From Candidatus Moraniibacteriota bacterium (GTDB lineage Bacteria; Patescibacteriota; Minisyncoccia; Moranbacterales; UBA1568): a stretch of DNA of 42,416 nt. The notes under the pieces were generated by a model. It did no database searches. It saw only the letters and a list, made by a program, of their open reading frames with translations, and had not been told where the DNA came from. The first letter of the stretch is position 1; the number at the start of each line of letters is the position of its first letter. Position numbers and translations under genes: made by a program. Where the stretch lies: NCBI GenBank assembly GCA_030648835.1, contig JAUSGT010000002.1, positions 155,665-198,080 on the forward strand. Reading direction: 5' to 3'. Positions 8,924 through 37,281 of this stretch are shown here, in pieces.

Positions 8924-8965
8924 GGTCCTGATAAAGAATTTGCGAGTATAGTACCCGCCTTCGTT

Positions 8966-8998
8966 CTTTGGACTACGGGCGGGCAGGCAATGGTAGTA
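8966..8998 (+). repeat. conserved tRNA-Gly leader core, copy 2
   Basis: CTTTGGACTACGGGCGGGCAGGCAATGGTAGTA matches 1129-1161 at 30 of 33 positions. It ends 1 nt before the tRNA. Confidence 0.8.
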
Positions 8999-8999
8999 A

Positions 9000-9070
9000 G
9001 CGGGTATAGTATAGTGGTAATACGTGACCTTCCCAAGGTTAAGCGAGGGGTTCGATTCCCCTTACCCGCT
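9000..9070 (+). tRNA. tRNA-Gly (anticodon CCC)
   Basis: 71-nt cloverleaf. Acceptor GCGGGTA/TACCCGC, D arm GTAT-AGTGGTA-ATAC, anticodon arm TGACC-TTCCCAA-GGTTA, T arm AGGGG-TTCGATT-CCCCT. Confidence 0.9.
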
Positions 9071-14722: not shown

Positions 14723-14780
14723 CTAAAATTCAACAAACAAAAGAATTTTTTGTCTTAATTTCACCTCTCGTTTTTCTAAT

Positions 14781-14930
14781 AATCCTTCCTTGCAAGCAAC
14801 CTTCCCGGGGGCCGTTCCGTTCATCCAGCGATGAACTCCACTTATGAACTTTTTTTGATCCGTCGATACAACGGCACCATGCTCAAAAAAACTTCAACTC
14901 TCCCAGGAAGATTCTTGCTACGGAAGGATT
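14781..14930 (-). ncRNA. candidate structured RNA, copy A (inverted homologue of 36562-36713)
   Basis: By hand alignment, 126 of 140 alignable positions are identical to copy B. All helix substitutions are compensated or G-U compatible on this strand. A TATAAT box lies on the minus strand at 14952-14947. See findings. Confidence 0.6.
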
Positions 14931-25892: not shown

Positions 25893-25918
25893 GATAATTG
25901 ATAAGGGATAATTGATAA
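25893..25918 (+). repeat. 26-nt GATAATTGATAAG-type word repeat, copy 1
   Basis: GATAATTGATAAGGGATAATTGATAA is the exact reverse complement of 30966-30991. Internally it is a 13-nt unit repeated twice. Confidence 0.9.
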
Positions 25919-25984
25919 GAGATAGAGAGTGTGTGAAAGAAAAAATCATGCATCACTTGTCTTGTGTCATGTATCTTTTCCCAT

Positions 25985-30904: not shown

Positions 30905-30965
30905 GAAGATGCAAGATGTTTGATGAGAGATGTACGATGACGAGTCTTCAAATCTCGCATTTCTT

Positions 30966-30991
30966 TTATCAATTATCCCTTATCAATTATC
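30966..30991 (-). repeat. 26-nt GATAATTGATAAG-type word repeat, copy 2 (inverted)
   Basis: TTATCAATTATCCCTTATCAATTATC is the exact reverse complement of 25893-25918. It lies between ssb and rpsR. Confidence 0.9.
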
Positions 30992-31007
30992 ATTTATCAC
31001 AGACATT

Positions 31008-35435: not shown

Positions 35436-36179
35436 ATGGCGGAGTTTACATTACAGGTGAAGATTCGTGAAGAAGCGGGGAAAAATTTGGATACGATGCG
35501 CAAGCTTGGTTCGATTCCGGCGGTGATGTATGGTCATGGTATCAAACCGCAGATGTTTTGGGTGCACTATGTGAATTTTTCTAAGCTGTATGATAAGGCC
35601 GGTGAAAGCAGTATCATCGAGGTGACTCCAGAAAAAGGCAAGACGGTAAATGTGATTGTGAACGATGTTCAGCTTGACCCGCTGACGGATCGCTTTACTC
35701 ATATCGATTTTTTCCAGGTGCGGATGGATGAGAAGTTGGAGGCGCACATCCCGCTCGAATTTGTTGGTGAATCCCCGGCCGTTCGCGAGATGGGAGGTAT
35801 TCTCGTAAAGCCGATAGAAGAAATATTGGTGAGTTGTTTGCCAAAAGACTTGCCGCGTTCTCTTGTTGTGGATCTTTCCGTTTTGCATGAATTTGGCAGT
35901 CACATTCAGATGAAGGACGTAAAAATTCCAGCCGGTGTCACGGTGCTTATCCCGTTTGAGACGGCAATCGCCCTTGTCGAAGCTCCACGTACCGAAGCTG
36001 AAATGGCCGCTTTGGACGAGAAGGTAGAGGGTGATGTCACCAAAGTGGAAGGGGTTGTAAAAGAAGAAGCCTCCACGGGGGACACCGCTGCTGTCGATAC
36101 CGAAAAGAAAGGCGGGAACAAAGAGGAGAAAAAAGCTCCTGCCGCCAAGGAAGCGAAACCTCCCGAAGGCAAGAAGTAA
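35436..36179 (+). CDS. rplY: 50S ribosomal protein L25/general stress protein Ctc (long form)
   Basis: REEAGKNLDTMRKLGSIPAVMYGHG.. and VQLDPLTDRFTHIDF. Two-domain Ctc architecture plus a Lys/Glu/Ala-rich tail. Confidence 0.9.
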   Translation: MAEFTLQVKIREEAGKNLDTMRKLGSIPAVMYGHGIKPQMFWVHYVNFSKLYDKAGESSIIEVTPEKGKTVNVIVNDVQLDPLTDRFTHIDFFQVRMDEKLEAHIPLEFVGESPAVREMGGILVKPIEEILVSCLPKDLPRSLVVDLSVLHEFGSHIQMKDVKIPAGVTVLIPFETAIALVEAPRTEAEMAALDEKVEGDVTKVEGVVKEEASTGDTAAVDTEKKGGNKEEKKAPAAKEAKPPEGKK

Positions 36180-36200
36180 TTTTGCCAGAGAAAATAACAG

Positions 36201-36227
36201 CCGGTCCATATGGGGCCGGTTTTGTTT
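36201..36227 (+). terminator. rho-independent terminator after rplY
   Basis: CCGGTCC-ATATG-GGGCCGG, with one U-G pair, followed by TTTTGTTT. Confidence 0.75.
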
Positions 36228-36298
36228 ACTCTGTGTAATCCGGCTTTGCCGATCCGTCTTTGACGGAATTACACAGGGTGAATTCTATTGTAGGACAC

Positions 36299-36326
36299 TT
36301 GACTTTTTCTTCTTTATTGCTACACT
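36299..36326 (+). promoter_or_regulatory. sigma70-like promoter TTGACT-16-TACACT with no CDS downstream
   Basis: TTGACT 36299-36304 and TACACT 36321-36326. The hexamers and spacing are the same style as the promoter at 203-230. Confidence 0.6.
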
Positions 36327-36332
36327 AAACTG

Positions 36333-36513
36333 TCGTTAAAAAAATGAGTTGTGCCGGTTTCCGGTTTCTATCCGTAGGAGGGAGGAGGGCATCCCTCCTA
36401 GTCATCCTCCCTTGAAATGTATGGAACTCGATTTTTCGAGTCTCTATCGCCTGCGGATGGAAACCCGATATCAGCCACAAAAACAAGACCACCCTTTTGG
36501 TGGTTTTTGTTTT
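36333..36513 (+). ncRNA. candidate ~180-nt small RNA bounded by a promoter and a terminator
   Basis: A 16-bp helix joins 36363-36378 to 36450-36465, with two U-G pairs valid only on the plus strand. An outer 5-bp helix is TTGTG/CACAA. Apical hairpins are AGGAGGG-CAT-CCCTCCT and ACTCGA-TTTT-TCGAGT. The terminator is ACCACC-CTTTT-GGTGGT plus T-run (36488-36513). Confidence 0.55.
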
Positions 36514-36561
36514 ACGTATGTAGAGAAACCGCCAAAAAATTCTTTTATACGGTGGACATAA

Positions 36562-36713
36562 AGCCTCCCGTAGCAAGAATCTTCCCGGGAGAGTTGAAGT
36601 TTTTTTGAGCACGGTGCCGTCTCTTCAGAGACGGATCAAAAAAAGTTCATAAGAGAAGTCCGACGCTGGTCGGACGAACGGCCCCCGGGGAGGTTGCTTG
36701 CAAGGGAGGATAA
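36562..36713 (+). ncRNA. candidate structured RNA, copy B (inverted homologue of 14781-14930)
   Basis: Helices are P1 36564-36569/36704-36709 and P1b-P2 36573-36589/36684-36701. P3 is 36596-36608/36636-36648, P4 36617-36634 and P5 36658-36675. Covariation with copy A is described in findings. Confidence 0.6.
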
Positions 36714-36735
36714 TGAAGCGGGACGGAAACCTTTT

Positions 36736-37281
36736 TTATGTGTCTAGCCGATGCAGAATTTTTTCTTTGACTTGCGGAAAAAGTTTTTGGAGCGCTGTAA
36801 GTTCCTCAGGAGAGAAATTTTGCAGAACAAAATCATGGGCGGAAATACAGGCGCCAGGATCACCAGCGGGATGACCGATGCCGAGGCGAATGCGGAAGAA
36901 ATCCTGAGTTCCGAGCTTGCCGATAATATCTTGGACACCGTTGTGTCCGGCGCTTCGTGAAGAGAGAGTCGTTTTGAAAGTTCCCGGAGCGATATCCAAA
37001 TCGTCATGAATAACGATGATGTCCTGGGGCAAGAGCTTGTAGAAGTTGATAAGTGTTTGTACCGCAGTGCCGGAAGCATTCATGAAGGTGTCCGGTTTCA
37101 CAAGAAGCACTTTTCCTTTGCCAATTGTGCCGGAACTCAAACTGGCTGACATTTTTTTGTCCGGAGTGAAAGCCGCAAACCCCCATTCTTTTTGTAGGAA
37201 GTCCGCGCACAAAAACCCCGCGTTGTGGCGATTATGTGCATATTGTGGACCTGGGTTTCCTAAACCGATAATGATCTTCAT
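36736..37281 (-). CDS. pth: peptidyl-tRNA hydrolase
   Basis: MKIIIGLGNPGPQYAHNRHNAGF.., ..HDDLD.. and ..GHNG. are canonical Pth motifs. Confidence 0.93.
   Translation of the reverse strand: MKIIIGLGNPGPQYAHNRHNAGFLCADFLQKEWGFAAFTPDKKMSASLSSGTIGKGKVLLVKPDTFMNASGTAVQTLINFYKLLPQDIIVIHDDLDIAPGTFKTTLSSRSAGHNGVQDIIGKLGTQDFFRIRLGIGHPAGDPGACISAHDFVLQNFSPEELTALQKLFPQVKEKILHRLDT

Follow-up and report, generated by a model that had tools for sequence, protein, structure and literature searches.

The convergent genes rplY and pth of a Candidatus Moraniibacteriota bacterium enclose a 556-bp gap without a credible coding sequence (CDS), and the question raised by this locus is whether the gap harbours an RNA gene and, if so, of what kind. 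The gap was analysed within a 42,416-nt stretch of contig JAUSGT010000002.1 (the window, whose positions are used throughout). A preliminary description of the window had proposed that an orphan promoter-to-terminator unit encodes a structured RNA here. We found that the gap contains a plus-strand gene whose fold is supported by covariation and which recurs at the same place in relatives; its RNA is a Y-shaped three-way junction of about 180 nt. Members of this family, which was previously undescribed, occur in a single clade of uncultured groundwater bacteria, the Candidatus Moranbacteria, within the Candidate Phyla Radiation (CPR) or Patescibacteria; full-text literature searches returned no description of this RNA.

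Structure, signals and conservation of the RNA gene

The features of the locus are listed below in the order in which they occur, with the three helices called P1 to P3.

36199-36231, plus strand: intrinsic terminator of rplY, with a 9-pair stem at 36199-36221 followed by a T-run.
36299-36326, plus strand: sigma-70-type promoter, with -35 TTGACT (36299-36304), a 16-nt spacer and a TG-extended -10 TACACT (36321-36326).
36333-36348, plus strand: probable short single-stranded 5' leader, its sequence unconserved across the family.
36349-36377, plus strand: 5' strand of P1, with the outer extension TTGTG (36349-36353) and 24 covarying positions (36354-36377); box GGUUUCU(R)UCC.
36378-36390, plus strand: 5' arm of P2, 13 nt, purine-rich (GAGGGAGGAGGGC), with no unpaired base after P1.
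36391-36400, plus strand: apical loop L2, 10 nt (AUCCCUCCUA), with CCCUCCU invariant in 20 of 20 sequences.
36401-36413, plus strand: 3' arm of P2 (GUCAUCCUCCCUU), in which U36413 forms an invariant G.U with G36378.
36414-36420, plus strand: junction strand J2/3, GAAAUGU, with GAAA and the G of AUG invariant.
36421-36447, plus strand: P3 hairpin, variable in length and sequence; in the window a 5-pair base and then ACUCGA-UUUU-UCGAGU.
36448-36450, plus strand: junction strand J3/1, CGC (family consensus YCG).
36451-36480, plus strand: 3' strand of P1, with 36451-36474 holding the box GGAU(R)GAAACC and the extension CACAA at 36476-36480.
36481-36513, plus strand: intrinsic terminator (AAGACCACC-CUUUU-GGUGGUUUU and a U-run), preceded by an A-rich linker.

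The same fold was obtained from a MAFFT alignment of 12 sequences treated with RNAalifold and from a model-based alignment of 20 sequences. In the 20-sequence alignment, 92.0% of the 778 pair cells held a standard pair, compared with 39-51% when the 3' partners were slid by 1-3 columns; both sides had changed in 34 of the 42 pairs, and none of 500 shuffles matched any of five covariation measures. P1 comprised 24 pairs, 18 of them changed on both sides, with 92.7% of its cells paired. P2 had 13 pairs (12 changed on both sides) and no insertion or deletion in the 20 sequences, its base being formed by the invariant G.U and then a covarying G-C/A-U pair, and the base of P3 had 5 pairs (4 changed on both sides), below a loop and a length that vary. 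About 20 further positions, in the junction and in the middle of P1, were invariant or nearly so. Since no unpaired base lies between P1 and P2, these two helices probably stack into one long rod.

Comparative alignment of the rplY-pth region with a covariation test thus gave strong covariation, which included the helix of 16 pairs between GGTTTCTATCCGTAGG (36363-36378) and CCTGCGGATGGAAACC (36450-36465) on which the preliminary description was centred. This helix is present in the minimum free energy (MFE) fold of the window, but its 16th pair, G36378-C36450, is specific to the window, because family-wide G36378 pairs with U36413 instead of C36450. What had been taken for a 9x10 internal loop turned out to be mostly paired: it is the outer third of P1, which has three mismatches in the window and covaries in relatives. 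The hairpin ACTCGA-TTTT-TCGAGT is real and corresponds to P3. The general picture of a 6S-like rod with an internal bubble was not supported: according to the covariation, the RNA is a three-way junction in which P1 and P2 are not separated by any unpaired 5' strand.

Two other structural candidates were rejected. An H-type pseudoknot between the CCCU of the loop and an invariant AGGG is opposed by the fact that this AGGG is already paired at the junction (A-U, G-C, G.U and G-C, with one covarying A-U), and a linker of 0-1 nt would be too short to cross a 13-bp helix. A hammerhead or other self-cleaving junction did not fit either, there being only two junction strands, the wrong sequences and no Rfam match.

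Several observations settle the strand. The plus strand of 36330-36515 folded with an MFE of -78.6 kcal/mol (z = -6.98, 0 of 200 shuffles as good), and the minus strand of the same stretch reached only -63.1 kcal/mol (z = -3.7). The covariance model scored 94-116 bits on the plus strand versus 21-38 bits on the minus strand, and 104 of the 778 pair cells were G.U, one of them invariant, so that the argument from wobble pairs by which the plus strand had originally been chosen holds family-wide. The promoter and the terminator point in the same direction.

Both of these signals are present as they had been described, namely the promoter TTGACT-16-TACACT, with TG preceding the -10, and the terminator, with its stem at 36485-36507 and its T-run reaching to about 36513. 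From the position of the promoter, transcription would start near 36333. A near-consensus TTGACA-N16-17-TAnnnT promoter was found at the equivalent place in 17 of the 18 family loci, scoring 9-12 of 12 and mostly having an extended -10; the distance from the -10 to the conserved core was 12-27 nt in 17 of the 18 loci and 48 nt in L012, where the promoter call is weak (loci of relatives are designated by L numbers). An intrinsic terminator, consisting of a hairpin and a U-run directly after the core, was present in 18 of 18 loci, usually with an A-run before it. The RNA needs its own promoter, because the rplY terminator closes the transcription unit upstream, and the layout of rplY terminator followed by promoter is repeated in relatives. 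These sequence signals bear out the proposal of a self-contained unit for a structured non-coding RNA of the plus strand, and suggest that this RNA is transcribed; a look-up of public RNA sequencing runs for the window, L013 and L011 found none. The distance between the core of the RNA and the pth stop is 50-90 nt in most loci. In most relatives, moreover, the pth stop codon directly adjoins the terminator with its A-run, hairpin and U-run, which suggests that this terminator is probably bidirectional and common to the RNA and the convergent pth.

Although the unit had been called an orphan, the gene is conserved, and in the same synteny, in about 18 further genomes and metagenome contigs of Candidatus Moranbacteria. 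With nhmmer and the covariance model, homologues were detected, always as a single copy in each locus: 10 are in GTDB species representatives, 9 in distinct metagenome contigs and one in a partial contig. Those detected by nhmmer lay just 3' of rplY in L005, L007, L009-L014, L019 and L020 (L013 is from Hainich and L011 from Rifle) and further downstream in L015. An exact pattern derived from the invariant positions, AGG-N14-CCCTCCT-N12-YTGAAAYG, was scanned against metagenome contigs and gave 62 loci, 11 of which were confirmed by the covariance model (10 full-length and 1 partial); the same pattern found nothing in viral contigs. Every locus had the order gyrB, Zn-ribbon gene, rplY, RNA, pth and LCP gene, with the RNA on the rplY strand and convergent with pth, and the carriers of the RNA formed one clade in a tree of L25. 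The more distant Moranbacteria (L016-L028) had a different synteny and no RNA match. Over the 972 nt that follow rplY, L001 (MFSB01000029.1, a GTDB representative) is 100% identical to the metagenome contig L043 (Ga0209211_10001875). That L001 seems to lack the RNA is a contig-end artefact, because its contig stops before the RNA gene.

In the window, rplY (35436-36179, plus strand) encodes ribosomal protein L25 of the Ctc/TL5 type (Pfam L25p and TL5_C), and pth (36736-37281, minus strand) encodes peptidyl-tRNA hydrolase (Pfam Pept_tRNA_hydro) and is followed by an LCP-family gene. The relatives of the L25 protein assign the window to Candidatus Moranbacteria. Between them lie, in this order, the rplY terminator, the promoter, the strongly folding stretch, the intrinsic terminator and copy B of a repeat element (36561-36714). 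The only open reading frames (ORFs) of the gap, with 70 and 63 amino acids (aa) on the plus strand and 95 aa on the minus strand, belonged to no Pfam family and were not conserved, in agreement with the earlier statement that the gap has no credible CDS. The RNA stretch lies on one contig with an even depth of 32 in the source groundwater metagenome, where the word depth of the RNA region (32) equals that of its flanks, which makes it single-copy.

Among relatives, the rplY-pth gap is a hot spot of insertions. L043, which belongs to the same population as L001, has a 1.7-kb insert carrying a 371-aa ORF, L015 has two extra ORFs of 178 and 613 aa, L005 has one of 179 aa, and the gaps of L002 and L003 contain a long palindromic hairpin element (AAAAACTTCTGGAGTTTTT...) in opposite orientations. 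The genes inserted in L015 and L043 fall between rplY and the RNA, so the RNA keeps its place beside pth.

Identity and possible function of the RNA

That the RNA cannot be assigned to any family, as was previously stated, was confirmed by the lack of a match among 4227 Rfam 15 models. When cmscan was run at the gathering score on the whole window and 11 homologous loci, the RNA matched none of the models, those for 6S, signal recognition particle (SRP) RNA and raiA included, and the only matches in the window were two tRNAs located elsewhere in it. At E <= 10 on positions 36100-36800 (the 701-nt gap region), there was no 6S, SRP, raiA (RF03072), transfer-messenger RNA (tmRNA), RNase P, RsaE, riboswitch or ribozyme; the sub-threshold matches were due to chance only, Phe_leader and RNAI through the terminator and a plant microRNA through the long helix. 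ARAGORN found 0 tRNA or tmRNA genes in 36100-36800. The RsaE model (RF01820) gave no match, and neither did the rRNA models at the RNA.

The explanation that we tentatively prefer is a scaffolded trans-acting RNA, in which a loop resembling the anti-Shine-Dalgarno (anti-SD) sequence pairs with a purine-rich target. The rigid scaffold would display the invariant pyrimidine loop for base pairing in trans, and its partner would be a purine-rich sequence of the type 5'-(U)AGGAGGG(AU)-3' (UAGGAGGGAU) on another RNA, whose target site would be masked or occupied by the pairing. A protein partner would probably read the sequence-conserved junction and the UUUCU/AGAAA box in P1. We infer from the conservation pattern that the loop is the active surface, and the nature of its pairing partner and of any protein partner is likewise deduced.

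Two features expected of a trans-acting small RNA (sRNA) were found. The first is an accessible and conserved single-stranded C-rich seed: CCCUCCU was kept in 20 of 20 sequences while its closing stem varies freely and the length of P2 is fixed, and the loop was predicted to be unpaired with a probability of about 1.0 in 15 of the 18 members, the values for the window, L073 and L043 being 0.87, about 0.4 and 0.02-0.06, respectively. The second is a transcription unit of its own, to which the promoter (17 of 18 loci) and the terminator (18 of 18) point. The roughly 20 conserved positions outside the loop exceed the needs of a plain sRNA made of seed and terminator, which argues for a role of the scaffold or of a partner; together with the fixed helix lengths, they point to a scaffold that is read by a protein or by a tertiary fold.

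The hairpin AGGAGGG-CAT-CCCTCCT, as first drawn, is not the conserved fold, since the family holds CCCUCCU in an open 10-nt loop. The alternative pairings that had been attributed to a tandem AGGAGGG are possible in the small clade of the window, but only there: in the window (region 36375-36400), L043 and L073 alone, the 5' arm of P2 contains a tandem GGAGG(G/A)AGGAGGG that can slip onto the loop. This slipped conformer, which is predicted by folding, may be a lineage-specific form of self-masking or an artefact of the energy model.

Other observations weigh against a trans-acting RNA that pairs through its loop. Matches to the complement of the loop were not enriched in the 42-kb window (24 observed versus 30 expected), and the few AGGAGGG sites of the window included none at a credible ribosome-binding site or gene start. 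Around the starts of gyrB, the Zn-ribbon gene, rplY, pth and the LCP gene, in the 18 loci, duplex energies with the loop were those of the background. Only about 2-3 of the 30 longest non-overlapping ORFs of the window had an SD-like sequence, a figure that is indicative only since the start calls were crude. The rplY-pth gap lacks the RNA in three lineages nested within the carrier clade (L002 and L003; L004; L006 and L008), from which it follows that the RNA is dispensable or movable. Finally, a protein-binding RNA would account equally well, or better, for the extensive conservation outside the loop.

The use of SD sequences in the host bears on the number of possible targets. By the same crude start calls, rpoB, rpoC, gyrB, rplY and pth were all without an SD sequence, and the upstream regions of the genes of the window were A/U-rich. 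A CCUCC probe paired better with random sequence than with the start regions of gyrB and pth from 13-17 relatives. A survey of the wider Parcubacteria detected the anti-SD CCTCCT at the 16S 3'-end of only 48% of genomes, and its authors suggest that the lineages concerned form no SD helices (PMC9297842). No 16S gene lay in the window or in the examined loci of relatives. Because the host genes look almost SD-free, a general SD-masking role is unlikely, and the targets of a trans-acting RNA would be few and specific.

A protein-binding decoy, or ribonucleoprotein RNA, is the main rival and in our opinion unlikely but deserves to be weighed. Its loop would imitate the 3' tail of 16S rRNA and would titrate or guide a factor recognising this tail. 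Candidates are Era, through its KH domain, and other factors of 30S maturation or initiation, and the fixed-length rod and the junction might complete the surface that is bound. In crystal structures, Era binds GAUCACCUCC through its KH domain, and the CCUCCU core of the loop is both invariant and open. Moreover, the fixed lengths of P1 and P2, the conserved junction and the box within a helix form a pattern typical of RNAs read by proteins and not of simple antisense sRNAs, the near-consensus promoters may reflect high constitutive expression, and no mRNA target was found nearby, in the 42-kb window and among the neighbouring genes. However, the AUC before the core varies (ACC, UUC, CCC) and is not followed by the A of AUCACC, the motif is enclosed in a loop and not at a free 3' end, and the locus has no linked candidate partner gene.

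It is improbable that the RNA represents a free-standing, strongly transcribed anti-SD module in a CPR lineage whose genes almost never use SD sites. Such a module could be a mimic of the 16S tail that controls a ribosome-biogenesis or initiation factor, or a dedicated masker of the few SD-like sites of the genome; most speculatively, it might be harmless to its SD-free producer and occupy the SD sites of an SD-dependent partner or host cell.

Quite improbable, too, is a cis-acting domain that senses a ligand or factor and is coupled to the terminator, read-through of which would give an antisense transcript of pth or regulate a same-strand gene further downstream. In its favour, the RNA is always directed towards the 3' end of pth and remains next to it despite the insertions in L015 and L043, its three-way-junction core with conserved junction bases looks aptamer-like, and in L005 the 179-aa ORF begins on the same strand about 40 nt past the terminator. 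L005 is nevertheless the only such locus, as 17 of the 18 have no same-strand gene downstream and have the convergent pth next. The RNA and pth are separated by a repeat element in the window, L007 and L073, and by a gene in L005, and their adjacency would be more simply explained by a bidirectional terminator in a compact genome. P1, with at least 24 pairs, is far more stable than a typical switching helix, a non-exhaustive look at MFE and ensemble folds revealed no antiterminator pairing with the terminator, and no riboswitch family of Rfam was matched.

The size of about 180 nt, the long helix that closes the RNA and its strong promoter of apparently constitutive type would be compatible with a polymerase-binding RNA of the 6S kind or with some other housekeeping RNA, for instance a divergent SRP RNA of the CPR, and yet we regard this reading as highly improbable. 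Neither 6S, SRP, tmRNA, RNase P nor raiA was matched in the gap at E <= 10 or in the 11 homologues at the gathering score, ARAGORN was negative, and the fold established by covariation has no central bubble. Against SRP RNA (RF00169 / RF01854) there is, besides the missing model match, the lack of its domain IV, in which conserved symmetric and asymmetric loops are capped by a GNAR tetraloop: neither apical loop is a conserved GNAR, L2 being AUCCCUCCUA and the P3 loop variable. The absence from the locus in several close relatives and the restriction to one clade are also unlike a housekeeping RNA.

Hardly any credence can be given to a small protein gene, either the 70-aa plus-strand ORF (36349-36561) or a minus-strand micro-ORF starting from the conserved UAGGAGGGAUG: although one plus-strand frame is open in many members (VSI(R)R..IPPS..LKC) and the loop reads AGGAGGG-AUG on the minus strand, the check for coding revealed neither a conserved ORF nor a Pfam family, 6 of the 18 members (L010, L019, L020, L012, L043 and L073) have the frame closed or truncated, there is no conserved start codon, the changes in P3 length are not multiples of three, substitutions are paired across the helix arms and not synonymous, and the minus-strand ORF has 6 codons in L019 and L020, with a 1-nt SD-AUG spacing that is non-functional.

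The CPR or Patescibacteria account for a large share of bacterial diversity and have tiny genomes and unusual ribosomes; our literature searches found no described regulatory RNA for them. What is now available is a covariation-backed structured RNA gene of one CPR clade, described by a precise model of its structure and by a calibrated covariance model. Its striking feature is an invariant CCCUCCU loop in an organism that apparently does without initiation led by SD sequences. Should the loop prove to be its working surface, the RNA could give a handle on the control of translation or ribosome assembly in uncultured bacteria; if it is not, this is still a new RNA family, worth depositing in Rfam. 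Its narrow and patchy distribution limits its present importance.

The repeat element and other features of the window

Copy B of the repeat element lies immediately downstream of the RNA gene, and the preliminary description had noted this position, on the same strand. A functional tie between the two was not supported: most homologues have no such element adjoining them, related elements occur in either orientation, and copy B is high-copy, in contrast to the single-copy depth of the RNA. We also rejected the possibilities that the RNA forms one unit with the repeat or is itself a repeat, given that the depth of the RNA is that of its flanks and copy B has 8-40 times that depth.

The repeat is about 150 nt long and occurs in the window as copy B (36561-36714, plus strand) and copy A (14779-14930, minus strand). 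Several of its helices are kept by compensatory changes between the copies, for example GUCCGAC...GUCGGAC versus GUUCAUC...GAUGAAC and CCUCCC...GGGAGG versus CCUUCC...GGAAGG. In the source metagenome the core of the repeat had a word depth of 275-1253, compared with 32 for the flanks, and it breaks the assembly graph and is followed by several different flanks; part of it was also present in the metagenome of another study (X2). Rfam contained no match to it, and viral contigs gave no real one. A TATAAT box and a terminator of its own seem to accompany copy A. In L007 (5026-5230, minus strand, opposite to the RNA) and in L073 (6195-6420, minus strand, the same as the RNA), diverged relatives of the repeat adjoin the RNA terminator. 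The repeat is a high-copy structured element and is possibly mobile.

The 3' arm of P2 at 36404-36414 (AUCCUCCCUUG) and the 3' end of copy B at 36701-36711 (CAAGGGAGGAU) showed 11 nt of perfect complementarity. This is probably a chance match of CU-rich with GA-rich sequence, because the P2 arm is variable in relatives.

Two further repeats were observed away from the RNA. A 45-nt block occurs at 1117-1161 and 8954-8998, with 82% identity, directly upstream of the tRNAs at 1171-1241 and 9000-9070; it ends in GGGCGGGCA(A/G)GCAATGGTAGTA and, judging by its position, may be a common tRNA promoter or leader. An inverted repeat of 30 nt (25893-25924 and 30962-30999; GATAATTGATAAGGGATAATTGATAAGAGA) has arms that are 97% complementary and 5 kb apart, each of them an internal tandem of GATAATTGATAAG. 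A mobile or invertible segment might be delimited by these arms, or they might act as a shared operator.

Comparison with known systems

The RNA shares with 6S RNA (RF00013) its length, a long terminal helix formed from the 5' and 3' parts and a strong promoter. It differs from it in having a three-way junction in place of the large central bubble, unpaired on both strands, with which 6S RNA mimics an open promoter, and in its narrow, patchy distribution, and it does not match the 6S model.

The 3' tail of 16S rRNA consists of helix 45 followed by GAUCACCUCCUUA, which contains the anti-SD sequence (G-G-AUCA-CCUCCU-U-A). The loop of the RNA, G-C-AUC-CCUCCU-A-G, matches GAUCA-CCUCCU-UA except for one missing A. 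The inner part of P1, CCGUAGG/CCUGCGG, also resembles the stem of helix 45, but only in the window, and this likeness is not conserved in relatives. Unlike the tail, the motif of the RNA is held in a closed loop without a free 3' end, and no rRNA model is matched.

Yfr1 of cyanobacteria is an RNA of about 60 nt with a conserved unpaired ACUCCUCACAC between two simple hairpins. The two RNAs may be compared in that each has CUCCUC/CCUCC in its sole invariant single-stranded element, which the helices on either side display. The Moranbacteria RNA is nevertheless about 180 nt long and Y-shaped, carries its motif in an apical loop and is phylogenetically unrelated.

RsaE/RoxS (RF01820) and the other 'UCCC-motif' sRNAs of Staphylococcus aureus and the Firmicutes act by base pairing of C-rich loops with G-rich, SD-like sequences. 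There is no homology of sequence or structure between them and the Moranbacteria RNA, which has a single motif, a large rigid three-way junction and many conserved positions outside the seed, and whose host genome appears nearly SD-free. The likeness would be an analogy of principle, in that both are stand-alone promoter-to-terminator genes with a conserved, unpaired C/U-rich motif in a hairpin loop. The RNA described here is a new family of a familiar general kind, with a well-defined structure.

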